Positions 12,901 to 47,700 of a stretch of DNA of 64,000 bases are shown here, one piece after another (positions within the stretch are counted from its first letter, which is position 1; each line of letters starts with the position of its first letter). This DNA comes from a virus: the IMG/VR virus record IMGVR_UViG_3300050343_000185. One strand, written 5' to 3'. The position numbers and the translations under genes are program-made. The notes beneath the pieces were generated by a model, which was not told where the DNA came from, made no database searches, and saw nothing but the letters and a program-made list of their open reading frames with translations.

Positions 12901-15900
12901 GTTAAACCAGCAGCTGTGATAACACCAGTGATGTTTGTATTATTTTGAACACCGGCAACGTTGTTCTTAACTTCGTGTCCGATTAGAACATCAGAGTTGG
13001 TAGTAAACAACATCTGACTAGAACCAGAATTACACTGTGCTGCTAGTAGAGCAAAGTATCTTCTCTCAGCACCCTTAATGGATTGCATGGCAAGAGCAAA
13101 GTTTTGGTCGCCACGTAAGAAAGTGAATGAGTTTGCAGCACCGCCAGATGCTAGTCTATCTGTTTCAATAACACCGGATGTAATATCGGATGCAGCAATC
13201 TGGTTGGAAGATAGAGATACCCAGTTATTAATATCGAATGAAGATGTATTAACACCTCTGTTAATGTTAATTGTATTTGGAGTAGGTGATGTACTATCGT
13301 TAATAGTATCGGTGTCTTCAATTTTAATATTATTAACAATATTGCCATACAATCTGCTTTCAAGTAAAGCATTACCTTGTGCTTGTACACCAGCTCCAGG
13401 AGGAGCAGCGAATGTTATAGTAGGAGCAGTGGTATATCCAAAACCACCTTTATAACCATTGAAGTCGATGATTGTTACAGTAACTACTGTACCATTGGCA
13501 ATAGTACAAGTTGCGGCAGCTGCGACTGCACCTGCTTCTGGATTGCCACCAGCAAATGTAATTACCGGTGGGGTTACATATCCAGAACCACCGTTGTTGA
13601 CATTAATTTGATATACAACACCCTTTCTGTATTCAGTTGATTGGATACGTCCAGTAGAAATGCTACCGGTAAATACATCACCAATAGTAAATGATAATGC
13701 TGGATCTACAGCAAACCCTAGGAACAAACTAGAATTATCATTGTTTAGAATGAATGATGTGGATGTATCCTGTTGGATCGCAATATCACCAGCAAGTGCT
13801 CCTTCTAGTGAAGTTCTTTCTGCTTGGTTGGCAACAGTGAAGACACTAAATGGTCTAAGTGCTGGGATCTGGTCGATAGAAATTTTACCAGAATCAGTAA
13901 GTTCAACCAGTGCTCTAGGAACAGCATTCGTAGAGTATGGTTTGTTGATGTAAGGTCCAAGGTTGTTAGTGATATAATCTCTAACTGCCTTTTGTGTGGG
14001 TAGTTTAGAGTCGGTCGCAGTTGCGCCACCAAGTGTGTTGGATGCGTCGAAACCAGTAACAACAACGTCGCCACCTTTCAGTTTCAAGAATTCAACTTCA
14101 GAAATTGTAACCGTACCAGTGAAAGTAATATTACCAGTTCTGTTTTCAATTCTAGCAAACGTACCAACTTTAAAGTCGCCAAGTTCGTCAGTACCAGAGA
14201 CATATACACGTCCATACTGTTCGGAAACTTGTTCAAATGCTTCAATCTTAGTACCACCGTTCTCAGGTAGTGCTAAGTAATTAGTTCCCGAACCAGCAAA
14301 TTCCCAAGTGTGGGAAGAAGAGTTAACAATAGATGGTCTGTGTAGATTGATTGTCTTACCTAACAATGAACCAGTAGATACTGCCTGATTAGTTGCATTA
14401 TCGGTTAGATCCATGGCACCACCTGTGCCATCGTCAAATGTTAACTGAGCAGAGAAAGGAGGACCAACTGTAACTGCAGCAACAACATCAACAAAGTATT
14501 CGATGTCTGTATTAGTATTTCTATAACCATCAATTTTAGCAACATAATGCTCTAGTGGTTCTCTTCCTAAACCAGTTACTGTTAGAATAGTTCTACCAGT
14601 AGGAGTAGAAGAAACGTTAGAGATTGTTGCAATATCAAATGTATATGGATCTTCTCTAAATCCAATACCTCTTAGAGCATACTGTCCGAAGTTAGTAGCG
14701 GAGTTGGTGATAGATGCATAACCACCAGATTCACAAAGAACGCCATCAGCACAGAAGATAACAAAGACAGAAACTAACTGAGTATAACCATCGTTTATAA
14801 CTTTATAACCTGTGCCACCAAAAGATACAATCGTGAATGCCGCAGCAACCATCGACTTACCCTGATTAGGGAAGGATGCGGATCCATCTAGTTCAAGACC
14901 AGGGAAAGGACAGTTAGGTTGTTTGACCTTACTACCATCAATTAGAGCACCACCACCACCTAGGAAGGAGATAACAGATGCATTTTGAGTGTATGGTGAT
15001 GCTTCGATGATAGGATTATCATCAAAGTCACCCCGAATTGCCATTCTTACATTATTGGAATCATAGATAAAATTATCAGGATATGTTATTAGCAATGCTG
15101 GATCAAATAATGTTCCAAAAGTTTTAACTGTTGTTCCAGCAGAAATTGTCTCATCTAAAATATCTTCAAACAGATCCATTATTGTATTAATGGAAGTTGC
15201 GACATTCGCACATAGTGGTGTGGAATCCAATAAGATATTCCAATCATCAAACCTAGGAATGGTGGAAGTTACTGTAGTCGGATTGAATATAATGATCGTT
15301 CCGTTTGTTTTTGCACTAACAAATGTATGAGCAATTCCTGCTGCAGTTCCTGCGTCTCCAACGTTCAATCCAATGGCAATCATTGTCGTTCCAGTTACAG
15401 AATTGATTTCGTAACTCTTTCCGTAGTTGGAATCAAATCTGTTTGGACTTGCGTGGTTAGCAGCGCCACCACCCATATCACAGGAGAAAGTGATAGCATC
15501 TTCTGTAAACGCAATTCTGTCTCCTACCTGTGGAATACCACCACCAGAAACAGGGTAAGTGATATTTAAATCACCTGTAGTAGAATTGTAAATGGCACCA
15601 ACTGGTGTTACAGAATCGACTACACCATCAGACCAGTTACGCATTGTTTCCAATGCATATATTTTAACTCTCTGGAAAGCATATATCGTAGAAGGACGCT
15701 GCGCTTCGGCAATACCAGTTAACTGAACACCAGTGAAGTATGATTCAGCAACAGTAACAATTCCATTATTGCCACCAAGTACCAAGTCTTTGATAAGACC
15801 ATCAAGTACAATTCTAATATCTCTACGACATTTTCTTTGGTTGGTATCGCTAAGATTTAATGAAGGAAATTGTGCTTCCGTATCAATAAGTGCTTGATCA

Positions 15901-18900
15901 GCAATAAGATCTTTATTTCTAGAAATTAAATACGCAGCATCTAGATATGTGCCGGACGCATTATTGGTAATGACATCAGACCAAAGGAATGATAAAGTAT
16001 CAATAGCAGATGCTACGTTAGCACAAGCAGGTGTTCCTGCAGTTAATGTAATAATAGTATCATCAAAATATCTTGGTAAAGATGAATGTAGTGGTGTGTA
16101 GATGGGATCCGATGGAGCACCATTTTCGGTTCTCCAGTTCCTCATACAATAAATTGCTAGTTCTCTAGCATATTCAATAGCACGAGCATTTTGAATAATT
16201 TCATCTTCAATGTAAGTAATCTTACCATCTACAATATATTTTTGAGCTGCTTCAATTACATTATGATTAGATCCAAATTCTAAATCTCTAATGATTGCGT
16301 TAATAAAGTGAACAATATCTTCTTTACACTGACTATCACCATCACTGCCAGTAGCACTTGGTGAACTATAAGATGGATAAACTTTTTGACCAGCATCACA
16401 TTCTAGAGTCATTCCCTCTAGTTTGATGTGATCATCTTCATTCAAACCCGCAACAAGACTATCTGTTGTTACAGTTGCAACACCAGTTACAGCGTTACTG
16501 TAAACAAAGTTTAAAACGTTATAAGTAGTACCACCAAACTTTACAGTACCACCAGAAACATATGTGTGAGATTGTTCTGCAAGACCTACAAAAATATCAA
16601 ATGAGTTTCCGCTGATATTATATGCAGAGTAGAAGTATCTTGCAAATTGATCGTTAATTTTACCTACGACTTCATCAGCAATAAAATCTCTATTGTTACG
16701 CAGTAACGTACAGGCGTCTTGGAACCTCCTATCTACAGGAGAACTAATTGGGAATGTGTTTGGGGAGTTAAGTAGCGATAAGGTAATAGATTTTGTTGCT
16801 GTCTTAACAGTTGCAAATTGACCTGGATCAAATTCCGCATCAGTAAGAGCTGGCATTTTTTTAGGAATGACAAATCGTCTGCAACGACCATCAGCATCTT
16901 CTAATACTTTATAAATTCTCTGTCTGCCATTTAACGCAGATAGATCAGGTGAAGAAGTTGGGAGACCTTCAATTAAGATCTCTTGACCTTCTTTAAACTC
17001 ATGTGTATTATTTCTGCCAACCAGAGCATTTGTATAAAATACAATACCACCAAGATCTTCTGCATTCCCAAATTGGGTGCCTTGGAATCCACCAGTTGCA
17101 ATACTGGTATCTCCTTGTAATGAGAAATCTAATCTGGAGATAGGCAAAAGTGATGTGTAATCTTCATCTACAGAAACAACTTCTCCCTCAGCACGAATTG
17201 ATTTGAGAGCTGTAGTATTTAATGTTTCTACCTGAGCATTTCCGGTAAATACTTCAATAGACGCAGTTTGAATTGCGGTCCATCCAGTAGATCCAAGAAC
17301 AGGTAAGTAACTAACTTCCCATGAAGTTGGATTGTTGATATCATTTGGTTCAATTTGAGTTACTTCGTAGTAACCAGCAGAAGGAGTAAATATTGCATTA
17401 CCATCATCACTTAAATATACGTATGTTCCAGCTGGGGTTATAGAAGTTGGATCAGTGCTAAATGTAATTTTGTTTGCAGAAGTTGTTCCGGTAGACGTTA
17501 ATGCTAAGGGACTTCCTACGCTATAACTAATAGAAGTTACAAAATTAAATTGTTCTCCCTCAACAAAAGAACCACTATCTAGTGTAATATCAAGAGTACC
17601 ACTAATGTATGCACTAGGACCAGTAATATCATCAAATACAACTTTTTGTATATTTGCTCTGGAACCAGTGTTAACACCAATTACGCTCAATCCAGTAATT
17701 AAAGTAGATAGACCAGTGTTATTTTGGAATGTAACTCTGAACTGTTGTGGTCCAAAAATTTGATGACCGATTGGGAAACTAGTACCAAAATCTCCATTGA
17801 CATCAGCATCAATTAAGATACGCTGTTTATCGTCAAAGACCATTGCGAAATCCCAAGTCGCAACTGCATCGCCATTGGAATCAATCTTATCTCTGTAAGT
17901 GACACCAGTAACGTAGTTTTTATCACCAAACTTGAAGATATGCTTGCCGGGGTTGGCAGGTCTGATAATTACGAGACGAAGGTTATCGCCAACAACTGAT
18001 GCGTCAGGTGGCAGTGAAATTGGGTTATCTTCTACGTAGTCACCACCAGAAACAATAAGGGTCTCCTTAACACCAGGAGTCGCCCATGCAAGTTGTGCTG
18101 CTTTCTTGATAGAACGAACTGGGTTTACGGCAGAACGACCATCGTTTAAGTCAGAACCAATAGTTTGTGAAACGTAAATACGACCACCAACGTCATTCGT
18201 TGCTAGGTTGAGGACGTATTCTGTAGTAGCAATCTTGTCTGATCTATCTCCTAGTAAAGGAGTAATAGAACGAGGGAATACCCCAGATGCACCAGTTTCT
18301 GAATATCCAAAATCATTTTCGTCAACTACACGAAAACCAATATGTTTGAAATTAACTTCACCATTTAGTGCTTCGCCATCCGTATGAACAGGTGCGCTAG
18401 ATCCAGTTTGTCCTGAGTTTAATGCTTGATATACGTTCTGTCCAAAGTACCTGTACGCATTTTCCTGTAGAATAATATTCGAGGACCATAAAGTACCCGA
18501 ATTATTAATATAAGTTTTTAGAGAGGGTGCTCTAAATGCTGCGTTTGGAGTAACGAAGTTGTCGATATCCAAGTTGAGGATTCTCGCCGTATCGGAAATG
18601 ATAGACGTAGAGGTTCTAATAGCACCGTTGATGTCAAGTTCAAAATCAACAGTATCAAGTAATGCCTCAGCAGAAGCACCAACACCGCCACCAGCTTGAA
18701 TGGTAACTGTAGGAGCTTGAGTATATCCACTGCCGGGATCATTGACAGCAATAGATACAACCTGACCATTAAAGATAAATGCAGAACCCTGTGCTTGGAC
18801 TCCACCCCCACCAATAGGTGCCGATATTGTTATAATTGGTGGCGAAATATATCCAGAACCACCAGTTAAAATTTTAACATCATTAACTCTCTGCCCCGTT

Positions 18901-19067
18901 CTATTAATACCAACACGGGGTAAACCCGTATTAGCATCTAACTGCGTCCTTAGAATTTCTTTTTCTAATGAACCTGTACCGCCTCTAACAGTAAGTTCAT
19001 TATCACCGACCAGCTTAGGTTTGGAACCCTGAAACTTTTCCTTATCGGAATTAATATGAATTGACAT
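9984..19067 (-). CDS. Giant tail fibre/structural protein (3027 aa) with a split beta-helix and phycobiliprotein-like repeats
   Basis: GxGY repeats, fibre motifs (LDADLLDGQQGNYY, VGVNTTNP), IYVSQTIGSDLNDG beta-helix start, terminal SAGPITIATGYTVTINSGGNWAIV. Confidence 0.85.
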   Translation of the reverse strand: MSIHINSDKEKFQGSKPKLVGDNELTVRGGTGSLEKEILRTQLDANTGLPRVGINRTGQRVNDVKILTGGSGYISPPIITISAPIGGGGVQAQGSAFIFNGQVVSIAVNDPGSGYTQAPTVTIQAGGGVGASAEALLDTVDFELDINGAIRTSTSIISDTARILNLDIDNFVTPNAAFRAPSLKTYINNSGTLWSSNIILQENAYRYFGQNVYQALNSGQTGSSAPVHTDGEALNGEVNFKHIGFRVVDENDFGYSETGASGVFPRSITPLLGDRSDKIATTEYVLNLATNDVGGRIYVSQTIGSDLNDGRSAVNPVRSIKKAAQLAWATPGVKETLIVSGGDYVEDNPISLPPDASVVGDNLRLVIIRPANPGKHIFKFGDKNYVTGVTYRDKIDSNGDAVATWDFAMVFDDKQRILIDADVNGDFGTSFPIGHQIFGPQQFRVTFQNNTGLSTLITGLSVIGVNTGSRANIQKVVFDDITGPSAYISGTLDITLDSGSFVEGEQFNFVTSISYSVGSPLALTSTGTTSANKITFSTDPTSITPAGTYVYLSDDGNAIFTPSAGYYEVTQIEPNDINNPTSWEVSYLPVLGSTGWTAIQTASIEVFTGNAQVETLNTTALKSIRAEGEVVSVDEDYTSLLPISRLDFSLQGDTSIATGGFQGTQFGNAEDLGGIVFYTNALVGRNNTHEFKEGQEILIEGLPTSSPDLSALNGRQRIYKVLEDADGRCRRFVIPKKMPALTDAEFDPGQFATVKTATKSITLSLLNSPNTFPISSPVDRRFQDACTLLRNNRDFIADEVVGKINDQFARYFYSAYNISGNSFDIFVGLAEQSHTYVSGGTVKFGGTTYNVLNFVYSNAVTGVATVTTDSLVAGLNEDDHIKLEGMTLECDAGQKVYPSYSSPSATGSDGDSQCKEDIVHFINAIIRDLEFGSNHNVIEAAQKYIVDGKITYIEDEIIQNARAIEYARELAIYCMRNWRTENGAPSDPIYTPLHSSLPRYFDDTIITLTAGTPACANVASAIDTLSFLWSDVITNNASGTYLDAAYLISRNKDLIADQALIDTEAQFPSLNLSDTNQRKCRRDIRIVLDGLIKDLVLGGNNGIVTVAESYFTGVQLTGIAEAQRPSTIYAFQRVKIYALETMRNWSDGVVDSVTPVGAIYNSTTGDLNITYPVSGGGIPQVGDRIAFTEDAITFSCDMGGGAANHASPNRFDSNYGKSYEINSVTGTTMIAIGLNVGDAGTAAGIAHTFVSAKTNGTIIIFNPTTVTSTIPRFDDWNILLDSTPLCANVATSINTIMDLFEDILDETISAGTTVKTFGTLFDPALLITYPDNFIYDSNNVRMAIRGDFDDNPIIEASPYTQNASVISFLGGGGALIDGSKVKQPNCPFPGLELDGSASFPNQGKSMVAAAFTIVSFGGTGYKVINDGYTQLVSVFVIFCADGVLCESGGYASITNSATNFGQYALRGIGFREDPYTFDIATISNVSSTPTGRTILTVTGLGREPLEHYVAKIDGYRNTNTDIEYFVDVVAAVTVGPPFSAQLTFDDGTGGAMDLTDNATNQAVSTGSLLGKTINLHRPSIVNSSSHTWEFAGSGTNYLALPENGGTKIEAFEQVSEQYGRVYVSGTDELGDFKVGTFARIENRTGNITFTGTVTISEVEFLKLKGGDVVVTGFDASNTLGGATATDSKLPTQKAVRDYITNNLGPYINKPYSTNAVPRALVELTDSGKISIDQIPALRPFSVFTVANQAERTSLEGALAGDIAIQQDTSTSFILNNDNSSLFLGFAVDPALSFTIGDVFTGSISTGRIQSTEYRKGVVYQINVNNGGSGYVTPPVITFAGGNPEAGAVAAAATCTIANGTVVTVTIIDFNGYKGGFGYTTAPTITFAAPPGAGVQAQGNALLESRLYGNIVNNIKIEDTDTINDSTSPTPNTININRGVNTSSFDINNWVSLSSNQIAASDITSGVIETDRLASGGAANSFTFLRGDQNFALAMQSIKGAERRYFALLAAQCNSGSSQMLFTTNSDVLIGHEVKNNVAGVQNNTNITGVITAAGLTTVALNNPVTQNIPINTIIEFERGESPMTFESTYTLGGFVDAVIVANGGSGYTNGQYFDVELQGGTGTGLKANIVVSGNAVTDLTVTDGGSGYNADYAITVSPTEIGAGSNLVLNAKVSTVNRQYANVAIDITRVSDLTISADLYGTIGVSRYKKAQFNIGQAGNGSVELKTGPDSGLDADLLDGQQGNYYTNASNLFSGTIPSDRLNGTYNIDVSGSSNNTIRLQTGTNNPTSNPDPNSFVEGAISNTVFNSSNGLGSAYPSVNTGIGSGTSTKHLVLTLRNGASGFDASFGGVRQLAFANDDNMYLRGSGNGVTTWNSWARVWSSLNDGVDSGLDADRLDNRQGTWYQDALNINYGTLSENRLPRFISETKFRDKITIKSFSGDPKYRIYVSGQILNTAPFIPGDPTNPSINLYNANAQGVGSFVLDNVITNDDLTDNFNDYTILIGRLTSGNFVGALTIGTASNRVEFDDFTIEDGNTVEVANFQSNGGVAELQLGRKDGITSSPSIIFNSSQLSANFNAKIEASGGNATDGSGALNVSVVNANAFTINNQVIWNAGNILFSSSNVPNYAVQRDASGNFSAGTITADVTGASSLNVLKTGDTMTGPLVLTGSGSNLTVSGTTNLNSFVNVADDFNVDSGVLFVDVSANEVGVNTTNPVANLDVVGDLGIFVRTSTDSVGAQIRFSDLGSAAQNGKIEYYHSDSNTPNSQYNEAFFIEGTETKLALQVTGDILATRRMGVGLTREPNFTFEVAGNGCFNDGLTIDQANDNSGAPISFRGASSYRNFRVGNQLVGNHLFTIQASTDNGGTTWNGTPAISIKGDVNAVSINTTSTSGVDPESNTTRNYKLNVQGDMNINGQFFQNNAEFVTSRWTEATNNLDIYRISKVGVNKADPVYELDVSGDIQVANGTLYSNGVKQWIDSYGIFKSNSNTVAEDVIIPANINCVSAGPITIATGYTVTINSGGNWAIV

Positions 19068-33543: not shown

Positions 33544-35355
33544 TCAGAATTCGATTACTAGTTTGATATCTTCAATCTGGTCAGGAGCACGAGTGATTAG
33601 ACGACGGTTTTCCTGATAGATGATATCACCAGAGTTATTGGCAATTTCAGGTGCTGCGAGACCACCTGCGAAAGTAACACCCAAAAGTGTGCTTGCGTAT
33701 GTTGTATCAACATTACCTGCTGCTGCCGATAGTACACCGGAGATAGCATTGGATCCATTGCTCTCGAATGCTTGTACAACACCTTGATCTACATGAGCAT
33801 CATTTGTTTGGATATACTTAAGAACGCCTGCTGTAGAAGAACCACTATCAAGTGTCCATGAAACCACGGTTCCTTTTGCAGTGCCACCTGTTACAGTTTG
33901 GGAGATCTGCTCATCGGGAATGAAATCCGCAGTGGCACCAGTAATTTTAACTGATTTCAAACCACTAAGAGTGTCTGCAGTAGAGAACGTAGTAGTTCCC
34001 CAGTTGAATGGGTCCTTGATAATACCAATACGACGGAAGTCGTTATCAACAGGGAAGTCTCCAGAACCTTCTGAGTAAGTTAGACGAATATTCGTCATGA
34101 CGCGCTTACCGTTGAGTTCTAGTTCATGATCAGAACCATGACCGCCTTGTGGAGGCAGCACAACTTCAACCGCACCAACACCGTTTGCGGGTGTCGCAAC
34201 TGCTGTAGTTAGACCAGCATCAGAGAAGAGGTTACCATTTCCTAAAAGAACATTGGCATAAGTATAATCTTGACCCCTTGCTTGAACACTAGCAGAAGTG
34301 ATAGTACCAGAACCATCGGTAGCAAGTTCAATTACTCCACCAGTTCCATCACCCTTGATGCCAGTAAATAGTGTTTGTGAAGCAGGTAAGTTGGCACCAC
34401 CATCTTCAATAAGAGCAACATCAATTGCTCCAGCAACAGCAGAACCAGTAACAGCAGTACGAGTATTGTTAGCAGGAAGAACAATTGGCATGAAGTCTGA
34501 AGATAGGAATCTTAGAACATCATCAGTTGGCATGGTGTACATATACTTCCAAATGTATCCAGCACCAGAAGTCTCTGTGTAAAGACCAGTTGCAGAAGCA
34601 TAGTTAGCACCAGAAGTTTTTGGTTCTTCTGTTGCGTTTTGTCCACTGGGGTTAGCAACGTTCTCGCCATTATAGAGGCACTTAAATACTTCATAATCAG
34701 AGTTCATTAAATAGAACTTAGCATCAGAGATACTTGTCTGATTTGTACCTGTTTGCTTACCAACTTGACCACCACCGCCTGGAGTAGCAGAGTAATCAGG
34801 TTTCCACATATCAAATTTGGGGTTTGCAACTACATCCCAATTGTAACGACGGATAACTGTTCTTGCGAAGGAATCAGTAATACGCTTAGCAGCAATGAGT
34901 TCATCATATACGGCAATTTTTTCTCGCTGATTATCCAAAGGAAGCGGGGGAATATCTTCTGTTGCATAACGGTACACGCCGGATTTTGCTACAGCAGATG
35001 TGTCGGTAGAACCACCATCAGCAGTTTCTTTTAGATCAGAACCAATGGGAGGAACGGAATTTGTACTGTTGCTGCCAAAAACGTCGGTAAGAAGGAGGGC
35101 ACTATCATAAACTGCAGCAACGGTGGCACGGAAAGCAGTGGATCCATATGTCCCAACATACACTTCATTTCCAACAGTAAAATTGGTTGAAGATTTTGAG
35201 TAAACTTCCAGGTATGCTTTCCATGGTTGAGGACGCCCAACAAAGAAATACATTCTAGTGCGCTCAGCACTTGTTTCGCTAGGTCCTTCTGTCAAGGATT
35301 CGAGGAATTGTTTCGCGTTAAAAATGCGAAACTTATCAGAGATAATAGCAGCCAT
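33544..35355 (-). CDS. gp8: Baseplate wedge subunit gp8
   Basis: MAAIISDKFRIFNAKQFLES...YEVFKCLYNG...GYIWKYMYTM...DFRRIGIIKDP...RAPDQIEDIKLVIEF. Confidence 0.92.
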   Translation of the reverse strand: MAAIISDKFRIFNAKQFLESLTEGPSETSAERTRMYFFVGRPQPWKAYLEVYSKSSTNFTVGNEVYVGTYGSTAFRATVAAVYDSALLLTDVFGSNSTNSVPPIGSDLKETADGGSTDTSAVAKSGVYRYATEDIPPLPLDNQREKIAVYDELIAAKRITDSFARTVIRRYNWDVVANPKFDMWKPDYSATPGGGGQVGKQTGTNQTSISDAKFYLMNSDYEVFKCLYNGENVANPSGQNATEEPKTSGANYASATGLYTETSGAGYIWKYMYTMPTDDVLRFLSSDFMPIVLPANNTRTAVTGSAVAGAIDVALIEDGGANLPASQTLFTGIKGDGTGGVIELATDGSGTITSASVQARGQDYTYANVLLGNGNLFSDAGLTTAVATPANGVGAVEVVLPPQGGHGSDHELELNGKRVMTNIRLTYSEGSGDFPVDNDFRRIGIIKDPFNWGTTTFSTADTLSGLKSVKITGATADFIPDEQISQTVTGGTAKGTVVSWTLDSGSSTAGVLKYIQTNDAHVDQGVVQAFESNGSNAISGVLSAAAGNVDTTYASTLLGVTFAGGLAAPEIANNSGDIIYQENRRLITRAPDQIEDIKLVIEF

Positions 35356-35415: not shown

Positions 35416-38400
35416 TTAAATTACAAACGGAATTAATTCCTGTCCGTTTGTGATGTTATTTGGACCTCTAGTCAAGGTGCAACCAGTAAATTCGGTTGCT
35501 GTTTTTCCAGTATACTGGATAAGAGTTCCTCCACTTGTAAATATATATCCGTTATCTGGGAAGTTTGTTGTATCTTGAACAACAATTGGACCACCAATAG
35601 TTCCAGAGGAAGAACTAATAGCAACTGGATTTTGTATAGATGGTGGCATCAAATTAAATCTATCCCCTGCTAAAGTATAACTAGAATTTCCTCTTTCTCT
35701 AAAGTCTTTTACTGTTAATGCAGGGAAATATATATCCATCTCACTAAGTGTTAATCCAGAAACTCCAGATGCTCCATCATCAAAAATACCATCAAAATGT
35801 GATATAGTATGACCAGCATTAGTTGTTGTATAATTTCCAATATATGTATTAGTTTGACCAAAGATAGAGTTGTTTATGAAGATTTCAACTCCATTTCTCT
35901 TTACTACACCATAATCATCTAGGATGTTTACAAATCCATTTAATCTAGTATTAATAGGATCCGCAATAAAGACACTCTCTTCATAACCATCAATTACTCC
36001 CCCAGGTGGAGTAAAGATCAATACCTGTGTCTGCTCCTTGGTAAGAGTAATATCACTTACAATAACTTGAGTCTCAAGTTCAATTTTAGTTTCATTATAA
36101 GATAGTGTAAACGATTGTACTGAATCAAGTGCAGGTTCTAATTTATAAACTACAAAAGTATTGACGCTAGAAATAGACTCAACATTAATTTGTGGTTGTA
36201 ATTGTGCTTCAATTACATTAGAAATTGTGGTATTTACTAGCGGTGTTTCAATTTGAAGTTCAGTTTCTCTTTCAGTTCTACCAACGTTAGCGCCACCTTT
36301 GACACTAACAACAGTAGACTCAGATTCGACCAGAGTAACACCACTGAATGCCACGGATACTGGATCTGGAATCTGTCGTAAGAATGTTCCAGCAATCCAC
36401 TCTTGGGCAGTAGTATTTTGCTGACCTCTTTCTACACTCAAGAAACGATCATTAATCTTGCGGAAATATCGAACAATTTCTGATCCAACAATAAGATATC
36501 CGTTGTTTTTAAACTTATCTGTATTACCAACATAAATGACGGTATCATTAACACCAAGTGTAGCATCCAAGAACGCACCAACTTCAAAGTAATTGATATT
36601 GGTAAGAGCAGTGTTGTTTACAACATTATTGATTCTGGAAGTTATCTCTCGTGTTGCTGATACAGTGAGTGTAGAAGAAGACTCAATGTCAACAATGTAT
36701 GGAGTGTTGATACGAATATAAACTTCCGTTCCATTGTAGAATGTATCAATTGGTGCTGCTTCCTGCTCTGTATGGAAAGTAGTTAATACCTCATCAAGAT
36801 TTGCTGATAAAAATTCTGAAGGAATTAATGGGATAGGATATATTTCAGCAGTAATAACTTTGTCAACATTGACCGGACTATCAATTAATGTTGATGTGAT
36901 AGAAGTAACATCAACTGATTCATTGCCAAAGATAGATACAGTAGAGATTACATTCAGTCCTAAAGACTGCTCTAAATTCACTGCAACGTTGATTAACGAT
37001 ACTCCAATATCAGTTTCTTCTAAAACATCATAACGTCTAGCAACAACAACTTTTGGTGCTTTTGTATATCCAGATCCGCCCTCAGTTAATTCTACACTGA
37101 TAACCTGACCCTTACTAACAATAACTTGTGCCTTAGCTCCACCACCATCGCCGTTTTCGGAAATAAAATTGATTACTGGAGGAGTATAATATTGATAAGC
37201 AGTTGGTTGTGTAATAGGATCATAACTACGTTGATTCCAATCTAAATCTACAACAATACCATTTTCAATTTTAGCAACAATACTAAGACCTTCGCCTCTT
37301 GTTACTCCATTATATGCCTGAACTTCAACTTGACCAAAGTAACTATTTGATACTTGCTGTTGATTTCTTTGTTCTTTACTTGTTAGTTTTGCTGGCAGTT
37401 CTTTAATTTTTCTGAACTTATCTTCACCCTCAACTTTTATTAAACTATTACTTGAGAGATTTATAAATGGATTTCTGTATGTCCTTCTCCAATAAGTACC
37501 ACGCCAATTTTGATCAGTTCCTCTGAGAATAGATCTACCATCATTATCAGTTTCATATACAATTGAAGAACCAGATGAATCTAATCCAACAATAGTATTA
37601 ATTTCATACCTTCTTGCTATAGAGAAATATACATCTCTTCCTTGAATTAATTCACATTTAAAACCAAATACTTTTAAACTTAGAGTTGATCCAGAAACTG
37701 TTGGATCACTAACTTGACCAATCACATTGTATGTGCCGTTATCATTAATTTGATAGGCATGAATTGAATCTCCTCTTCTGAGACCCATCCAATTATTTGC
37801 TAGGAAAGTATCGAGTCCTGAGGTAGTCTCTAAAGTAACAATTCCATTTAAGTAATATACGTCTGCATTAAAATCATACAAATTTAAAATTTGTCCGACA
37901 TCTCTACCATAAAGGTATCTCATGTCAACTTTCATCTGTTCTGTAATTGGGAAATTAAAGAATATATTTGGACCAGATACGGTGTATGATTCAATATTTT
38001 TTTGAAGAACTCCGTCAATGAACACTAACAAGTAATCTGATTCTTCAACGTTAACAACCGTAAGATCTTCTAAGTCAAGAATTAAGAATGGTCCTGTTCT
38101 GACATTATTGACCAAATTCTTGTCGAGAGTCATTCTCTTGTAATTGCCAACACCAATACCAACAACTTTCTCAACAGCTGTTGGTTCTCCTAATGTTTTG
38201 GCACCAGCATATTGATCCCAAATAGGAGCAACATCAAATTTGAGTATGTTTGGAATTACTGTTCTATCGATATAATATGAATCATCTCCTGGATAATCTG
38301 CATTATACTTAGTCTCTTGTAATACAGCATTAATTGATAGTAATAAATTCTCATCTTGTTCTGTGACAACAGAACTTCCGTCTTCCCAATATAATTCAAA

Positions 38401-41400
38401 CTCTTTGGTTTCGCCGTCAATATAATCAGGAAGAGTTTTAGCAACTTCTAATTTATTTAAAACATCGTCTAGGTTATTATAAAGAGAATTAATAGATGAA
38501 ATTACATCATTACATTCTTGTGATGGAAGCAATGGATCTGGTAGTATATTATAGTTTGAATATGTAAGAGTAGCAGACCAATATCCAGGTTTGTTTGGAT
38601 TAATGTTTACGACTTCTACTACACCTGTTCCCTTAGCAATGATATCTTTTATGATATCAATCATGGTAACAATTGATGATTCAACTTCAGCGCATACAGG
38701 AAATTCGGTATCTGTAAATACTGTACCATCTGCATAAGGTGTGATACTAGTAAAAGTTCCATTTGGCAATGAATTTCTCATTGCTAGTACCATGAGATCT
38801 CTTAATTTTTCCCATGCCGCAGTCGCAGCAGTAACTTCTAATCCTGTTAGGTAAGATAATTCTTCTCCGTATGGATATCCACGATTTGTATAGTATAGTT
38901 GAGCAAATTCAACGATTTTAGCATTTCCACCAAACCTTAAGTGATAAACTACGTTATCAATTAAAAATCCAAGATCTCTAGCACACTTTACTTTATCTGA
39001 TACAGGTAAAGCATAATTAGCATATACGAATTCACTTACTTCTTCCTGTAAATATTCTTTGTTGTTTACAATTAGGTTTGAAGCATCGTAGTAAGTTCCA
39101 TTATTAATTCCACTAAAGAAGAAAGTCGCACTATCAGTAGAAGCAAATGATACCGGTACTTGTAGAACGTCATTTGGATTTATCGAATATTGATTTCCTG
39201 GTTGAACCGCACCAGTACTAGTTCCTAAAACTTCACTTCCAGAAGAAGATCCACTGAGGAAAGTAGTAGATGAAGCTGCTCCACCACCACCACCCGAGTT
39301 TGCTAGTGCTGGTTTTGATAATGTTATTTGTGATTTGCTATCAATAGAAACAACAATTGTATCAGGACTATATGCCCTACCTGCACTAATTGTCATGCCG
39401 ATAGCAATATTATCAGTATTGCTAACTGTCACTTTTTTAGAACCTTGAATGAAGACTATATTTTCTTCAACATAATCCCAATTTCTAATTGCCAAATTTG
39501 CTAAATTTGTAGCATATTTAAAAATTGACAAAGATTCTGCTGCGTTATCTTTAATGTAATCCGAACTGGTAGCAAAAATATTTGCGTAATCTACAAGTTT
39601 GCTATTTCCTCCAAATCTAATATCATGTTGGTAGGCATCAAGAATATAACCAATGTCAATAATATAATCGTCTAATTTTGTACTCCAATCCAACGAACTA
39701 TAGTATTGCTTTCCATAACCAATCGATTCTTCAATAATAAATTGCTTGTTTCTGTCAATTTGATTGGCAGCATCAATCCATGTTCCACTACGTTGAAAAA
39801 TGTTTCTTAATTTTTTGAGATAGCGAGTGTTGTATTGACTATCTTTAAAGTAGAAATTTCTTCCAACAAACTTTGTTCCTTTGTATGAAGATGTGTCACT
39901 GATATTATTTCCTGTTAATTTATTTCCAGGACCCAGTGGAGGTGCGCTAAAGATAATATTATCACCACTTACTGTATATGCAACTCCTGGTTCTTGTAAA
40001 ATCCCATTAAGAGTAACAATCAAACTTTCAGCATTAACTGGAGTAAATGCTAGTCCTGTATCATCTAATACCTGGAAAGATGTTGTTCCTTGTAATCTAC
40101 CATCAGTATCAAAATATCCATCAAATGGAGCACTGAGAGTAAAGGAGAAAGCACGAGTTTCATTAAAGTTAAATTCAGAAGTAGCAGCAGAACCTTGTCC
40201 AGTACGTATTCTTGTATTTTTAACAGTTTGAATAGTTTGAGTCGTTACTTGCTTTGTGCTTTCAACAGTAATTTTGTTTTTATTTGGATCCCATAGTTGA
40301 ATGATTGAGAAAGTATCTGCTTTTCTTTCGCCAGCAGATGGCATTTCAGATTTTGCATCTGTCTCAACATCAACTTGACCAAATAATTTAAATCCAGCAG
40401 GGTGTGTGGTAGATTTAATTAAATCTCTCCACTGTTCAATAGAAGTTTTTGATTTAACAACGTAAGAGTAATCCTGATAGAAAAAACTATCAGTTAATTT
40501 TTGATTTGCTGCTCCAAGTCTTCCTTTATCAGAAGTGTAGTAACCTAGGTTATCATACGTAGCTTTAGTTGTTGTATTAAATGTTGTAATGAATACCTTC
40601 TTAACTACACCAGAAGCACCAGATATAAAACCAACTACAGGAACATTTTCTCTGATAATACCGACAACTTTTTCAATTTTAATTAAATTTGATCCCTGCC
40701 TATATTCAGAAACTACTGCTCTGGAAACTTCTACCCCGTTAATTGACTGAGTTAAAATTTCTCCTTTTTGGTATCCACCGCTGAAATTTTTCAACGCCAA
40801 AGTATATTTTGAAGTTACGGTTGACGCTACGGTTTCATCTAAATGGTAACCAGCTCCATTGTTTATAATTCTTACACTTTGAGGAATTCCAATACTTTCA
40901 CTTTCAGCATATAAATTTACCGCAGATTCAATTATTACAATCTCAGGAGCATATGTGTAACCGATACCCGGACTTTTAACAGTAATTGAAAACAACTCAC
41001 CATTACGTTGAATTACATTAAAATCTGCACCAGTTCCATCGGAATTAGTAATAATAACTTTGGGATTTACATAATTTGATCCAACATTGTCTATGTTAAC
41101 ACTAGTAATAATATTAGCAGATGTATCAAATAAAACTGTTGCTGATCCTCTATATGGTTCTGAAGGATCGCAACCTACAACTAATGGAACTTTTTTGTAG
41201 TTTTGTCCTAAATTTATTATTTTGACATCGTTAATTTCACCAATAGCAAATTGACCACTGGTGGTATACGAAATAGATCCAGAACCATCCCAAAGAGGAG
41301 TGCTTAAAACATCATATACGAAACGATTTCTTGTGACATAATTAAGTCTCTTTGTTCCTTGTAGTGGATCATCAATAACTTGTAAGTATGCTCCTTCTGC

Positions 41401-44400
41401 GTTTACAATACCATTTTTATCAAAGTAATAAAAATTAAGAAAATCTGTTCCTACTTTAGTATTATAAGTATTTTGCGATAGAGCAGAACCAAATCCAAAT
41501 TTAATTGTTGTTGATGATCCAGAATTACCTGGTAAAATTGTAGTAGCAAGTTTTTCTGTAGTTAATAGATTATAACTTTTACTTGGACTCATATCAAAAT
41601 ATGTTCCAATCAAAGAAGAATGCGAAGTATCAAAAACATACTTATAAAACTCTTGTACATTAATATTTGGATTTGGTGTAAATGTAGTATTGTCTTCTGA
41701 GAATTCAAATTTAAAATCAATATCTCTAACCGAAACAATAGATACTAATCTTTGTTGACTGCTTTCATCAAAAAATGTTGTACTTAATGTTATTGTTTCT
41801 GCTTCTCGCTTATCGATACTGTAATCAAATACGATAGTAGCATTTTGAGTATTCAAATCATACGACTGAATATATCCACTACCATTCGCAGAAGTAATTT
41901 TAAAATTATCTGAAAAATTATATCTAGGTTTGTATAATGAGAGAGATCCCCCATTGTAGTGATCTACTGCGATAGTTTCTTCTACAGATCGAATTACTGT
42001 TAGTATATTGCTATTGATAGCAGAAATTTCTACAATCTCAGATCCAATACTTACTAAATCTCCTACAGCAAATCCTTTTGAAGTTTTAACTTCAATAGTA
42101 GTAGCGTTGAATGAAACACCTGCATGATCAACATATAATGCTAATCTGGAAGAACTTAAAGATGCTCCTGATCTTTGTAGTTGATCATCATCTACACCAA
42201 GGTAATCTCCTCTCTTATAATCAGTACCACCATTTGTAATAGTGATACTACTAACGACTCCGGTAGTAGATACTATAATGTCCGCAATAGCACCAGAACC
42301 AGAACCTCCTGTGATTGGAATATCTGTATATGTTCCTGGTGTATAATCTGCCCACCATTTAAATTGGTAAATCTACCAATACCATTAAAATTAATCGTTG
42401 TTGTATTAGACGGTGGTCTGAATGTTACTTGCTGATATAATCTTTTCCTGATGTAATAAATTTTAGTTTTTACTGCATCGTCTGGAAATATATTAATATC
42501 AACAGAGTCTCCAATTGCTAATCCATGATCTTCTGTAGTTTCCACTAAAGCAACACTTTGATTTACTTCAAATGGTTCTAGATTATCACTTAACGAAACT
42601 AATGTGATAATTTTAGATCCAGATGTGTTGAACAGATTATCTGACTGAATATAATAATCATCATCAACAATCCATACACCAGATAATACTTTAATAGTAA
42701 CTGTATTCTGTCTGCTAGTTCCTTCTAGAATTTCAGCAGTAGCAATTGCTGGATTAACACCATCAGTTAAACTTAAGGTGGCACCTTTTGTATATGAACT
42801 ATCTTGATCAATAGTAAGAATAAAGGTTTTAATGTCAGCTGAAAAAGTTCCAGTGTTATTGAAAGTTCCTACTACATTTTTAAGTACAATCAAGTTGTCG
42901 TTAGAAACAGTTCCTACAATAGAACCAGATGCTCCACTTGCTGGTTGTCTTAATGTGTCATCTACAAATAAGAAAGCATTTTGAATAGTTGTTAGTTTTA
43001 CAACTTTATCTTCTTTACTCTGTAAGTAATTGACACTTTTTCCTTTAACCGAAGATACTAATGCATTAACATCTTTTCCTTCAGTTCCCAAATTATCAAA
43101 GTATAACTGTGAATTTACGGAGAAATTGCTAGAAGAACTATCAATAGCAATAGTATCTACAGTTCCCGATCGTACTTCTGAAATAGTAGCTACTAATCCA
43201 TCACCATTACCCAGCATCCCTGGAGTAAAAAATCTTTTAGCATTTTTGGGAATATCGTTTTGATTAATTCTAGTAGTGTAATTACTATCTACTGGCAGAG
43301 AATAGTATTTGTCTCCCAAAACATATGGAAACTGTGGTACTTGACTACTATTAATAGTAATAAAATACGCATATGTTCCATTAGGGAAATCGGGGGTAAT
43401 ACAAAAACGACCATTGTTTTCATCCAAGGATCCACTTTTGTGTGAATAAACATAGTCATTGATAAAGGATCCTAATGGATACTCTATTGGAGAAGGACCA
43501 TCTTGTCTATTTCCAGATAAAGAATAACTAGAAGTCATTCTTACAATTGAGGAAGACTGATCTAATGGATTTTCATGTCCAAATGGACCATAGATTGGAT
43601 TGCCGTCATACGCAAATCCTAAAATAGGAGAATGCGTTTTGTTTGCTGGTTCTGTATCTGCAGAATTTAAATTATCATTTAATTGAATCCTAAGTGCTTT
43701 TGGATTCGCAACTTGACCATATCCATATTCAAGAACATTGTTTATGTTTTCAAAAACATAACCATATTGCTTGTCTAAATTTGTTTCTAGTTTAGAATAG
43801 CGGTTTTTATTCCATTCTTTTAGTAGTGGTGTTACTTCAGCACCTGTTCCAACAGGAATAATTTCTACTTCGATGTTCTGTTGTGTGTATAGTGTACCAC
43901 TGGCAACTTTAACAAAGTCTACAATAGATCCATCTCTATCAATTACTGTGTTATATTCAGCAAACCTTCCTTTACCAACTTTATCAATAATTCTTACAAT
44001 AGGTGGTGTTGAATAAAACTTGCCAGGATTTTCTACGACTATACTAGTTACTTCTCCACCTGTTACAACTGCTCTAGCAACACCATCTCTTCCCGAAGTA
44101 ATCTCTACAGTGGGAGTAACTGGGAATGCGATGTCTGTATCAACAATAATACTATCAACAACATTACCAACCATCTGTGCTCTTGCTCTTCCAGCAAGAC
44201 CATCTACTATAACAAATGGAGGATTGATATATCCACGTCCTCTATTATCTACACGAATTTCTTCTAGTTTTCCGAAACGTAAACTTTCCGAATCTTTATA
44301 TCCATAAATGGGAACACCATTTAATAAGATACCAACATCTCTTTTTTGTGTTTTATAAATCTTCTGTTGTTGCTACAGGAGTTTTTCTAAGGATTCTAAG

Positions 44401-45898
44401 TATTTTTTGATCCTGAACAGGTTGTGCGATAATAGGACCATCAAAAATATTATATGACGGATAACTAGAAGATGTGATATAGTAATACTGATCATCTGCA
44501 AAAATAGCAGATACATTATTGGAAACACCAGCAAGTGATTGTTCTACTGGTGTATTAGTACCAGATGTTACTGATGTTCCAGTGTCTTGAATCCACCTAA
44601 GTTGATTAGTTCCAGTCAGAACAATTCTAGGATCCGATGTTTTAAATCCGGGTTGAGATACTTGTATAGCATCATTTGTGAACGAATACGGTTTGGAAAC
44701 ATCAGGCAAAGCATCATAAACAACACCTAACGTTAGCAATGTAACATCAGAACCTTCAATTGTAACTGGTTTATAAACAAACTCACCTTGAGAATGTGGT
44801 ACAGATAAACTTCTTTCACTGACAATAAACTGAGTTATTGTTTTATCTGAAAACTTAATAATTTCATTGCCAATTAAAATTTCTCCAATAGAACTCCATC
44901 CCATCGTAGAAAATACATTAACTCTATCACCAACTCCAAGAGATGAAGTGCTATAGCATTTTCTAATTTAGTTTTTGTTGAAATTTGAAATTCGCCATTG
45001 ACAGTTTCTGGAGCAACAACAATATTCCAGATTACTTCACCATCAATTGTACCTTGAGCAATAACATTATCTACAGTAGCAGATGCATATCCATAATCCT
45101 CTGTTGGAGACTGTACTATTTTCTTGCCAATTAAGTCTTTTGGATTTCCTGATACTACTTTTACCTTAAGGGCATATACATTAATCCAATCAGATTCAGA
45201 TGATTTGTATGTAAATTCTCTTGGGTGATATACTTCTGGTTTGTTTTCTACATCATCAGATACAATAGTATTAAAAATAAATTTAATAGAATCATCTGTT
45301 CCTTTTGCTTTGTAGAACTTCTGAATATTTTTAATCAGCGTTCTTTTATCTACCTCTCCCCTAAGATACTTTTCTGGGAATGATCCAAGGTATTGATTTT
45401 CAAAATTTCTTACAAAAGCATATAAGAATAGATTACTGATGTTATATACTTCAGCACCTGCTAAATGCTCTGTTGCTGTTGTACTAGAAAAATTAGAAGC
45501 ATTATACAAGTCTCCTAACTTAGTATTACCGCTTACTCCTCTAGAGCATTTAGTAATTGGTTACTAGTGCGACTTTCATAGAAAATAATTTCGTCATCAA
45601 TTCTTACATATCCATTTTTCTCTGGAAAAGACTGAGCATCTACAAGAAGAATTGTTGTATCACTAATGTTAACGTTAGTAACGATAGAATCTTTCTGATT
45701 AAGTAGATTTTTTTCGTAATAATCGATGTCAGCATATTTTTGGATGTTACTTAAAACATCCAAGGGACCACCCTGTACTTCCTGTGCTTCGTAATACTTC
45801 TCTACAAACTTACCAAATAGTTCATATTCAGAAGAAATGAATTCTGGAAGTTGTGATTCAATTAGAGTAGAAATTCTTTTAGTCTTTACAGAAGGCAT
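35416..45898 (-). CDS. gp7: Baseplate wedge initiator gp7 (~3494 aa), split in the track by four single-base frameshifts
   Basis: Begins KRISTLIESQLPEFIS...YY; directly follows gp6. Corrections of +1 (~45548), +1 (~44952), -1 (~44361) and +1 (~42351) give 10485 nt, an exact 3495 codons, with protein-like sequence across every junction. Confidence 0.85.
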
Positions 45899-45903
45899 TT
45901 ACT

Positions 45904-47700
45904 TTACTCTTTGTATGCAGTGAACGATGAATTGGCAACGTCAACGTCAAGGTATACCTCACGGAGTGCCTTGATATCATTAAGAAGTGGTTTTACTCTA
46001 ACAGAAATGCGGTTGTCAAAGAATGATCCTTTTATGATAGTAAGAGCATACATTTTCAACTCACCTTTTTCATAATCAATATCCCCAACATTACTGTCTA
46101 GAACAACTTTTTCGCCGGTTACGCTATCTATTCTATATAGGACAATTTTGCCATCCCTATCTTCCAAATACACATCAAATGTTGGGTATTCTGTTACTCT
46201 AAAAGCAGTTGATGACAGGGTGGGTTCGTCACAATCTTTATCGAAAGCATTTTGAAAACATACTTCATAATAGAAAGTAGAATTGAGACTAGGATAAAAA
46301 TCCTTCCTCATAGTTACTTCTGTTAAATTTGAATTGATTGATGGGTCTGCGTCATCAATTACACTGACTAACTTACTAAATCTAAACTTGCCATTAAATT
46401 TCTCTATATCAGAAACGTCAAGATATGATTGTACAGAATTAATTGTTTTATCTCTAATCTGTGCTGGTTTTAAATCTGTTGCCTCACCACTGTAATAAAC
46501 CTTAGAAGTTAACTCAACAAACAAAATTGATGGATCTACAATAACTGGTCTTACCGAAGCAACCATGTACTTCTTTAGATCTTCGATAATTTCTTGTTTT
46601 GTTAATGATGTAAGGAAAGAAGCATCAGTTGGTTTTAATACAATAAAAACTTTACCATACTCTGGTGGGTCTTGGTCTTCGCCGCCAAAAATAATAATAT
46701 CACTTACTGATGGATATACTTTACGAATGATAGCAGAGTAATCTTGAGCAGTTACAGCACGATCCTGTGTGCCATACATTTTTGGAGCATTTCTCTTAAT
46801 GTTCTTAATAGACTCTTTATCTTCTCCACCTGTAGAAGCTTCTACATTAGTAATGGCAGTACTAAATGCGTTTGGAGATACACCATTTGGATTTTCAATA
46901 ACTCCAGAAAACACAAATGTCTTAACACCGTTGGACTCTGGTCCTGATGTTGTAATGTAAGATACTTCTACTCTAGATCCGTTATCAACTTTCTTACCTA
47001 AAACACCATCACCCAATAAAATTTCGTATCTATCATCTTCGATCTCTTCAATGAAGAAAACTTTTGATGTAGAATCAACGTTTAGGATATTATCAGCAAC
47101 GAGATATGACTCATTGAAATTACTACCAGAAGGATATACCTTCACTCTAATAGTATTAGTGTCAATGTTTTGGTTGTCAAGAACAAATCTTTGTGATTTT
47201 AATGATGTGTTAACAGTAAATGTGTTGAGAATCTGTGTTCCTTCTCTAACTTCAACATTATCAAATGTCGCAACGTTGTTAACTACTTGTCCTGTTACAT
47301 CCTCTAATGTGATGTATTGATAAATGTTGTTGTCAAACGAACTAATAAATCCTGTTCCTTTCTTCAGTAGGAGTTCAGTATCAGTTGTTGATGTTCCATA
47401 ACTTACGTTAAAAGAAATATACGCAGTAGGAGAGGTGATACCTTTGGGTCTGTATCCTAATTGCTTCGCAATCGCTACTACGTTGTCTCTTAAGGTGGCA
47501 GAATCAATGAATAGTTCATTGACTACCAGATTAGCATTAAACGCCGTATAATACGTATTATAGGCAAGTGTGTCAATTAATGTTGATAGGACTGATCCAT
47601 CAAAATCATAGTCAGTAAAATCTGACTGTGCTCTGATATATTCTTTCAGAGCAACTTTGATATCTTCAAAGTCTAAATTAGCAACCTGAGTATATGGCAT
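45904..47700 (-). CDS. gp6: Baseplate wedge subunit gp6
   Basis: ANLDFEDIK..LKEYIRAQSDFTDYDFDGS; TQDRAVTAQDY; GGEDQDPPEYGKVFI. Confidence 0.95.
   Translation of the reverse strand: MPYTQVANLDFEDIKVALKEYIRAQSDFTDYDFDGSVLSTLIDTLAYNTYYTAFNANLVVNELFIDSATLRDNVVAIAKQLGYRPKGITSPTAYISFNVSYGTSTTDTELLLKKGTGFISSFDNNIYQYITLEDVTGQVVNNVATFDNVEVREGTQILNTFTVNTSLKSQRFVLDNQNIDTNTIRVKVYPSGSNFNESYLVADNILNVDSTSKVFFIEEIEDDRYEILLGDGVLGKKVDNGSRVEVSYITTSGPESNGVKTFVFSGVIENPNGVSPNAFSTAITNVEASTGGEDKESIKNIKRNAPKMYGTQDRAVTAQDYSAIIRKVYPSVSDIIIFGGEDQDPPEYGKVFIVLKPTDASFLTSLTKQEIIEDLKKYMVASVRPVIVDPSILFVELTSKVYYSGEATDLKPAQIRDKTINSVQSYLDVSDIEKFNGKFRFSKLVSVIDDADPSINSNLTEVTMRKDFYPSLNSTFYYEVCFQNAFDKDCDEPTLSSTAFRVTEYPTFDVYLEDRDGKIVLYRIDSVTGEKVVLDSNVGDIDYEKGELKMYALTIIKGSFFDNRISVRVKPLLNDIKALREVYLDVDVANSSFTAYKE

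Follow-up and report, generated by a model that had tools for sequence, protein, structure and literature searches.

A phycobiliprotein-type globin domain with a conserved C-x-R-D site in giant baseplate and fibre proteins of T4-like phages

The IMG/VR virus record IMGVR_UViG_3300050343_000185, of which a stretch of 64,000 nucleotides (hereafter the window) was analysed, stems from a T4-like Synechococcus cyanomyovirus with about 87% DNA identity to phage ACG-2014e over conserved parts and about 91% to the IMG/VR genome 2757321006_000001 (G006). Its giant protein at the gp7 position and a fibre-type protein together carry four copies of a small globin domain that is homologous to the phycobiliproteins; two of them have an intact C-x-R-D motif, one has C-x-E-D, and one is degenerate. 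The original prediction had been made for 38470–39790, where it placed a near-copy of the bilin-binding motif of alpha-phycocyanin in "baseplate gp7". Translation of the window gave exactly the proposed coordinates: the motif, KCARDLGFLIDNVVYHLRFGGNA, covers residues 957–979 of a frame of 2146 residues (P0001, 35416–41856, minus strand), that is 38920–38988, with the codon of Cys958 at 38983–38985. The reading direction had to be corrected, as the feature lies on the minus strand and the plus strand at 38470–39790 is riddled with stops. A Cys-less sister repeat, also part of the prediction, was found as IDIGYILDAYQHDIRFGGN at 39604–39660 (P0001 residues 733–751), and blastp shows the two to be homologous (E 9e-13, 35% identity over 78 residues). 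The copies in the window are the following, with scores from a family hidden Markov model (HMM):

38788..39111, minus strand: copy 2, gp7-position protein (family HMM score 104.4, E 3e-32)
39496..39792, minus strand: copy 1, gp7-position protein, degenerate (family HMM score 75.0, E 4e-23)
15645..15959, minus strand: copy B, 3027-residue fibre-type protein (family HMM score 90.7, E 5e-28)
16149..16730, minus strand: copy A, 3027-residue fibre-type protein, split (two partial HMM matches)

The resemblance of the phage domain to phycocyanin is true homology. A phmmer search of a 441-residue stretch against all PDB sequences returned C-phycocyanin alpha in ranks 1–21 and in 24 of the 26 matches (best E 0.017). 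The alignment is centred on the Cys84 helix and contains 11 identities in 23 positions, the number that the original prediction gives for the alpha-phycocyanin motif. Starting from three copies of the window (alignment A1), 1060 representative proteins were retrieved among 1.84 billion, and a profile (A2) was built from 146 copies of at most 55% identity, 143 of them from IMG/VR loci of other phages; copy 2 forms the first row of both alignments. Searched against the PDB, A2 gave phycobiliproteins in 37 of 39 matches, the best being R-phycocyanin alpha with E 6.2e-5 over residues 35–104. The match is thus both stronger and longer with the profile than with the single sequence, which is the behaviour of homology. 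When the members were scanned singly against Pfam, the phycobiliprotein family PF00502 was the top family with 21 of 146 (E 0.0014 to 1), followed by a runner-up family with 3; the whole of P0001 and single copies gave no usable Pfam family, a weak ESM4 match being discarded. A feature search of the ESM Atlas returned noise-level neighbours alone (score 0.80, V-ATPase subunit clusters). The comparison of the family with eight phycobiliproteins from a marine Synechococcus genome by hhalign resulted in 94.1% probability and E 1.3e-7 over 106 columns, in a register that places C-x-R-D on Cys84, Arg86 and Asp87. Reversal of the alignment lowered the probability to 0.5% and ten column shuffles to 0.1–0.8%, and masking of the KCxRD columns left the register unchanged (P 0.0025).

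The predicted fold points to the same family. With the A2 alignment, AlphaFold returned a model of five helices and a short hairpin with a predicted local distance difference test score (pLDDT) of 91.7 and a predicted template modelling score (pTM) of 0.84; the single-sequence prediction of the 441-residue stretch (pLDDT 31) is uninformative. Foldseek against 350,542 PDB chains listed phycobiliprotein entries throughout ranks 1–48 of the matches listed, with TMq up to 0.67. A search independent of Foldseek (VIA-align, 48,161 representative chains) placed bilin-binding globins at all of ranks 1–9 with Z 9.6–11.1: the top match is the bilin-binding domain of ApcE (Z 11.1, root-mean-square deviation (rmsd) 2.7 Å over 101 residues), and the others include allophycocyanins, ApcE in three phycobilisome maps, a photocobilin (Z 10.6) and two phycoerythrins. 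Next in this list are colicins and haem sensor globins with Z 8–9. The model and the hhalign match both correspond to phycobiliprotein residues ~30–148, the X/Y helices and helix H being absent. Based on this model, the unit of about 108 residues is a shortened phycobiliprotein-type globin with helices A, B, E, F′ and G. The profile and structure searches suggested along with the original prediction were hence positive, both for a globin-like phycobiliprotein fold and for aligned Cys84 and Asp87 (A2, Foldseek, VIA-align and hhalign).

With the PF00502 phycobiliproteins (CpcA/B, ApcA/B, CpeA/B) and ApcE, the phage domain shares the globin-type fold of helices A to G (Z 10–11, rmsd 2.4–2.7 Å over 101–105 residues) and the register in which K-C-x-R-D falls on Cys84/Arg86/Asp87, followed by a G-G turn. 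ApcE resembles it further in that the domain is likewise embedded in a far larger multidomain protein. Conversely, the phage unit has ~108 residues instead of the ~162 of antenna phycobiliproteins, lacks their N-terminal X/Y helices and helix H, and occurs as single beads or in tandem arrays of up to ~30 within virion fibre and baseplate proteins. Without these helices, neither the alpha–beta heterodimer nor disc assembly is expected, and judged by its model the domain is not an antenna subunit, for which X/Y helices and assembly into alpha–beta monomers, trimers and rods are characteristic. Phycobiliprotein paralogues outside the antenna are known as BBAGs and photoglobins or photocobilins (PMC10151467; PDB 8j2y). 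BBAG-1 and BBAG-3 carry CXRD, and BBAG genes are found in genomic association with those for heme oxygenase and bilin reductase, a pairing that the phage domain shows in phages with PcyX. By their description, BBAGs differ from the phage domain: they are small and soluble, belong to the cells of heterotrophic bacteria and of some cyanobacteria, and are not repeated units of phage structural proteins. Aquatic T4-like phages, the group in which the domain is found, also carry hemO/ho1, pebS, pcyA, pcyX and PhiCpeT; these genes encode enzymes and not acceptors, and the relatives of the window phage have cpeT only. We found no published description of phycobiliprotein-like domains in phage structural proteins.

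Throughout the family, the unit repeats with a period of 108–160 residues inside proteins of 1000–6000 residues, and arrays of up to ~30 copies are built in uncultured T4-like phages; for the largest, the library search gave 34 matched stretches and a recount 31. The copies average 23% identity. Over 1542 copies, the Cys of the motif is conserved in 95%, the Arg in 94% and the Asp in 99%; other conserved positions are D61 (98%), Y77 (92%), N18 (87%), N67 (82%) and D56 (79%). Arrays have mostly a single Cys per repeat, and C-x-R-D holds 8 of 8 Cys in one array protein (P0057) and 23 of 27 in another (P0002). An intradomain disulfide as a family feature is ruled out by the one Cys per repeat in arrays, and a haem globin by the lack of any conserved His over the 1542 copies. 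Where the Cys is missing, Tyr, Phe or Trp mostly takes its place, and the remaining site residues change with it, as the following comparison shows:

Arg: 97% in Cys-bearing copies (n = 1458), 41% in Cys-less copies (n = 69, 39 proteins)
Asp: 100% in Cys-bearing copies (n = 1458), 70% in Cys-less copies (n = 69, 39 proteins)
Tyr77: 93% in Cys-bearing copies (n = 1458), 61% in Cys-less copies (n = 69, 39 proteins)
D61, N67 and N18 (scaffold): 82–98% in Cys-bearing copies (n = 1458), 88–96% in Cys-less copies (n = 69, 39 proteins)

Cys, Arg and Asp of the C-x-R-D motif are lost as a unit.

The window copies cover this range of conservation. Copy 2 has an intact K-C-A-R-D motif at 38974–38988 (Cys958, Arg960 and Asp961), and KCxRD is kept in about 70 of 78 orthologous copies. 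In copy 1, D-Y-I-I-D (39655–39669) stands in place of K-C-x-R-D so that both Cys and Arg are gone; C-x-R-D is still present in 21 of 70 orthologues of this copy, the remainder reading DYxxD. Sister repeats in the fibre protein were confirmed by the family HMM as copies A and B. The motif of copy B, K-C-R-R-D, is intact (15819–15833, Cys at 15828–15830). Copy A matches in two parts, profile positions 6–45 (E 3e-7) and 41–103 (E 2.5e-11), as an insertion of ~88 residues separates the first helices (16608–16730) from the motif helix (16149–16343); its motif is Q-C-K-E-D (16317–16331, Cys at 16326–16328) with Glu in place of Arg. The insertion itself (16344–16607, minus strand) is rich in beta-type sequence and, lying between the first helices and the C-x-R-D helix, has the arrangement of a domain within a domain. 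Downstream of copy 2 (38500–38790, minus strand; P0001 residues ~1040–1130) there are two short Cys-bearing helices of similar motif, PVCAEVESSI and QECNDVISSI, and a similar CANVAS helix follows the copies in the fibre protein. The two helices might, for instance, replace helix H or form a disulfide.

Among 50,697 isolate phages, tblastn with copy 2 and with an 8-copy array protein matched Synechococcus, Prochlorococcus, "Cyanophage" and a few "Marine virus" records only. The large uncultured contigs with arrays have T4-type capsid genes; psbA and psbD were looked for in these contigs and none was found. One of these contigs encodes PcyX as its bilin reductase (PDB 5owg, E 2e-67), the closest isolate relative of which lies in Pelagibacter phage Mosig. 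The domain, with its Cys conserved, is therefore not confined to cyanophages, as it occurs in psbA-less T4-like phages with a Mosig-like PcyX. This touches in part the refuting condition named with the original prediction, an equally common and Cys-conserved repeat in phages of non-pigmented hosts. It does not refute the idea of a bilin site, since the near-complete PcyX carriers tested hold the domain and G002 and G005 have a heme oxygenase. A scan of cellular-genome contigs with a narrow pattern returned two contigs of metagenome-assembled genomes (MAGs) only, and a pattern of this width says little on cellular genomes. The two contigs, NYWG01000229.1 (L003) and JBJBBP010000001.1 (L004, 194 kb), belong to one Verrucomicrobiales MAG and one Synechococcus MAG (L004), and look like phage DNA mis-binned into bacterial MAGs.

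The relation of the domain to genes of bilin synthesis and attachment was addressed next to its distribution. The status of cpeT, ho1, pebS and pcyA in the source phage was judged from two proxies, the closest isolate ACG-2014e and the 91%-identical G006; tblastn with the CpeT of ACG-2014e gave no match in the 64-kb window. Both proxies have cpeT. Neither heme oxygenase nor bilin reductase was found in ACG-2014e, and no bilin reductase was found in G006. From the bilin genes named in the original prediction, the nearest relatives thus contain cpeT and lack ho1, pebS and pcyA, and any bilin in the source phage would have to be host-made. The suggested link to a CpeT-type lyase gained support from isolates as well: in a sample of 17 phages, scored for the domain by profile, cpeT is present in 11 of 12 with the domain and in none of the five without it (P-SSM2, S-SM2, S-SSM7, Mosig and P-SSP7; one-sided Fisher p 0.001 for the 17 isolates and 0.011 for the 14 cyanomyoviruses only). 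The co-occurrence of domain and cpeT fails in the uncultured PcyX phages G005, G058 and G061. These three near-complete genomes, which are the PcyX carriers tested, all have the domain, and it was found in both of two near-complete genomes picked via PcyX alone. Adjacent heme oxygenase and bilin reductase genes were present in both of the near-complete array phages tested first. G002 and G005 were each confirmed to have a heme oxygenase gene; G002, with an untyped bilin reductase, is also domain-bearing. A strict link between bilin-synthesis genes and the domain is ruled out by P-SSM2 and Mosig, which have such genes and no domain.

Two genomes deserve a description of their own. G002 (IMG/VR 3300034050_000451, 270 kb) is a complete uncultured T4-like genome with no psbA and 14 domain copies; at 197155–198278 and 218192–218758 it encodes a heme oxygenase, a bilin reductase and a CpeT-type lyase, i.e. 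a full candidate set for pigment attachment. In Mosig (MT647606, 39650–43977), ferrochelatase, heme oxygenase and pcyX abut the neck and sheath-stabiliser genes. Mosig infects a non-photosynthetic host, and the cluster lies at the edge of its structural module; the C-x-R-D globin domain was undetected in this phage by profile. Published work leaves open what phages of non-photosynthetic hosts use bilin genes for (PMC11480375).

In phycobiliproteins, bilin is bound at CXRD, and BBAG paralogues bearing this motif attach bilins to themselves without a lyase (Rockwell et al. 2023, PMC10151467). Since most of the phage domains keep the residues of pigment attachment, the virus particle may carry bile pigment; judged from sequence, we consider the chances that bilin is attached to the phage domains to be about even. 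The globin units are inserted as beads in the giant baseplate and fibre proteins and keep the C-x-R-D chromophore site. The apo-domains would fold in the cytoplasm of the infected Synechococcus late in infection, where phycoerythrobilin or phycocyanobilin of the host could be joined to Cys958 and to the Cys of the fibre copies, either autocatalytically, as in BBAGs and ApcE, or aided by the phage CpeT lyase. A few dozen bilins might then decorate the baseplate periphery and the fibres of the mature virion. Their likeliest use would be a light-dependent control of adsorption, photoprotection or pure stabilisation being weaker options. In its widest form, the proposal holds that virions of many aquatic T4-like phages are biliproteins whose bilin-bearing CxRD beads serve as the phage's own photoreceptor and gate adsorption by light, with bilins from the host or from phage HemO/PebS/PcyA/PcyX and attachment possibly aided by PhiCpeT. 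We regard this wide form as rather unlikely.

A number of observations weigh against the pigmented virion. Phycobiliproteins are antennae and not photoswitches, and to our knowledge pigmented cyanophage preparations are unreported. The residues D61 (98%), N67 and N18 are invariant in the phage family and absent from phycobiliproteins; with invariant residues of its own, the family could use the site for another ligand or a structural network. No copy scores above the curated PF00502 threshold (22.2 bits), and the window copies give no match to this family even at E up to 10. By the Pfam rule, these sub-threshold scores make the domain a distant, unclassified branch and not a member of PF00502. 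The Foldseek E-values of 0.02–0.15 are weak, and a Z of about 11 is within the chance range for helical models. Concerning the genes, S-ShM2 is a domain-bearing isolate without cpeT, the co-occurrence counts are small and uncorrected for shared ancestry, and the three domain-less cyanomyoviruses may represent a single clade. P-SSM2 (bilin reductase) and Mosig (heme oxygenase and PcyX) are without the domain in the profile search. Finally, T-type lyases are known for the beta-153 site and not for Cys84 (PMC10452541).

These points have to be read together with the other explanations of the domain. The unit may have a true phycobiliprotein-family fold without any chromophore and act as a rigid, compact spacer or interaction module, its C, R and D serving in packing, in a salt bridge or in the binding of another ligand or metal. 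Homology and fold fit this possibility equally well as they fit a bilin-bearing domain, and it would account for the polar residues that are invariant in the phage family itself (D61 98%, D56 79%, N67 82%), for degenerate copies without Cys and Arg that persist in functional-looking proteins (copy 1), and for phages with bilin genes and no domain. What it does not lead one to expect is the 94–99% retention of exactly the three chromophore-contacting residues at a mean identity of 23%, or the loss of the site residues as a set while the scaffold stays; moreover, the co-distribution with cpeT and PcyX is left unexplained. We rate a chromophore-free bead as somewhat unlikely.

Two further explanations fare worse. 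In one, the conserved Cys would serve to harden the virion outside the cell through disulfides or other cross-links, formed inside the protein or joining fibre subunits. Virion proteins do act outside the cell, and two Cys helices (Cys1055 and Cys1115) follow copy 2 while the Cys-less copy 1 is without them. Tandem arrays, however, usually offer one Cys per repeat and thus no partner, and cross-linking gives no reason why Arg, Asp and Tyr77 are conserved together with the Cys or why bulky aromatics replace it, so that we hold this role to be quite unlikely. The similarity could also be convergent or due to chance, the unit being a generic helical bundle of colicin-like or sensor-globin-like type. 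Colicin S4 (Z 9.2), colicin N (Z 8.2) and globin-coupled sensors (Z ~8) appear in the fold list, high Z values are easily reached by helical models, and the Pfam and Foldseek scores are sub-threshold. Against this stands that four different methods led to the same family in the same register, that the profile strengthens and lengthens the match, that shuffled and reversed controls stay below 1% and that the register survives masking of the motif. Neither colicins nor haem globins were found in the sequence searches, and a conserved proximal His is missing. A chance resemblance hence appears most improbable.

As for a response to light, the proposed gating of adsorption by bilin-bearing domains can be compared with the behaviour of five phages. 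In the dark, adsorption is seen with P-SSM2 and the podovirus P-SSP7 and not with P-HM1 and P-HM2 (Liu et al. 2019, PMC6628666). For S-PM2, the same study gives adsorption as light-dependent and photosynthesis-independent. The profile search found six domain copies in P-HM2, six in P-HM1 and ten in S-PM2, and none in P-SSM2 and P-SSP7. With five phages, two of them near-identical, this match between domain and light-dependent adsorption is a lead and not a result.

The baseplate and fibre branch in phages, with arrays of up to ~30 units, is a new context for a fold known from antennae and, since 2023, from BBAGs. The domain offers a concrete candidate for the protein to which phage-made bilins are attached and on which the phage lyase CpeT acts; the purpose of these bilins and of CpeT is described as unresolved in the literature (PMC11480375). 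It is likewise a concrete candidate for the light-sensitive element behind the light-dependent adsorption of cyanophages. If true, a phage photoreceptor would explain both the synthesis of bilins by phages, including those of non-photosynthetic hosts, and adsorption in the light only. Bilin binding, if it occurs, would make the domains useful as well for deriving small fluorescent or chromogenic tags that can be concatenated.

The genes that carry the four copies are as follows:

35416..45898, minus strand: whole giant virion structural gene at the gp7 position (PHROG phrog_4406; tblastn frame map)
9984–19067, minus strand: open reading frame of the fibre-type protein of 3027 residues, with copies A and B

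P0001 matches the PHROG family phrog_4406, "virion structural protein", with 2417 bits, and further PHROGs families of tail fibres and baseplate wedges, the baseplate wedge matches covering residues 357–519; a Pfam Baseplate_wedge match was weak (E 0.015) and discarded. The gene is flanked by gp8 (33544–35355) and gp6 (45904–47700), and the P-HM1 homologue is annotated gp7. The name "baseplate gp7" given in the original prediction agrees with the location of the gene, which has gp8 and gp6 as neighbours; the protein itself is probably not a true T4 gp7 and is better described as a giant "virion structural protein" at the gp7 position. The orthologue in ACG-2014e is one coding sequence of 3495 residues between gp6 and gp8, and that in G006 is a single intact open reading frame of 3494 residues (locus L006). 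According to the tblastn frame map, the window gene is colinear with the single frames of ACG-2014e and G006. Its domain-bearing part is intact, and in the first third of the gene the reading frame shifts four times (near 45550, 44950, 44400 and 42351), which divides the gene into five open reading frames. These frame changes (42300–45900, minus strand) could be a sequencing or assembly error or a genuine break; the junction at 42351 adjoins a GGTGGG run.

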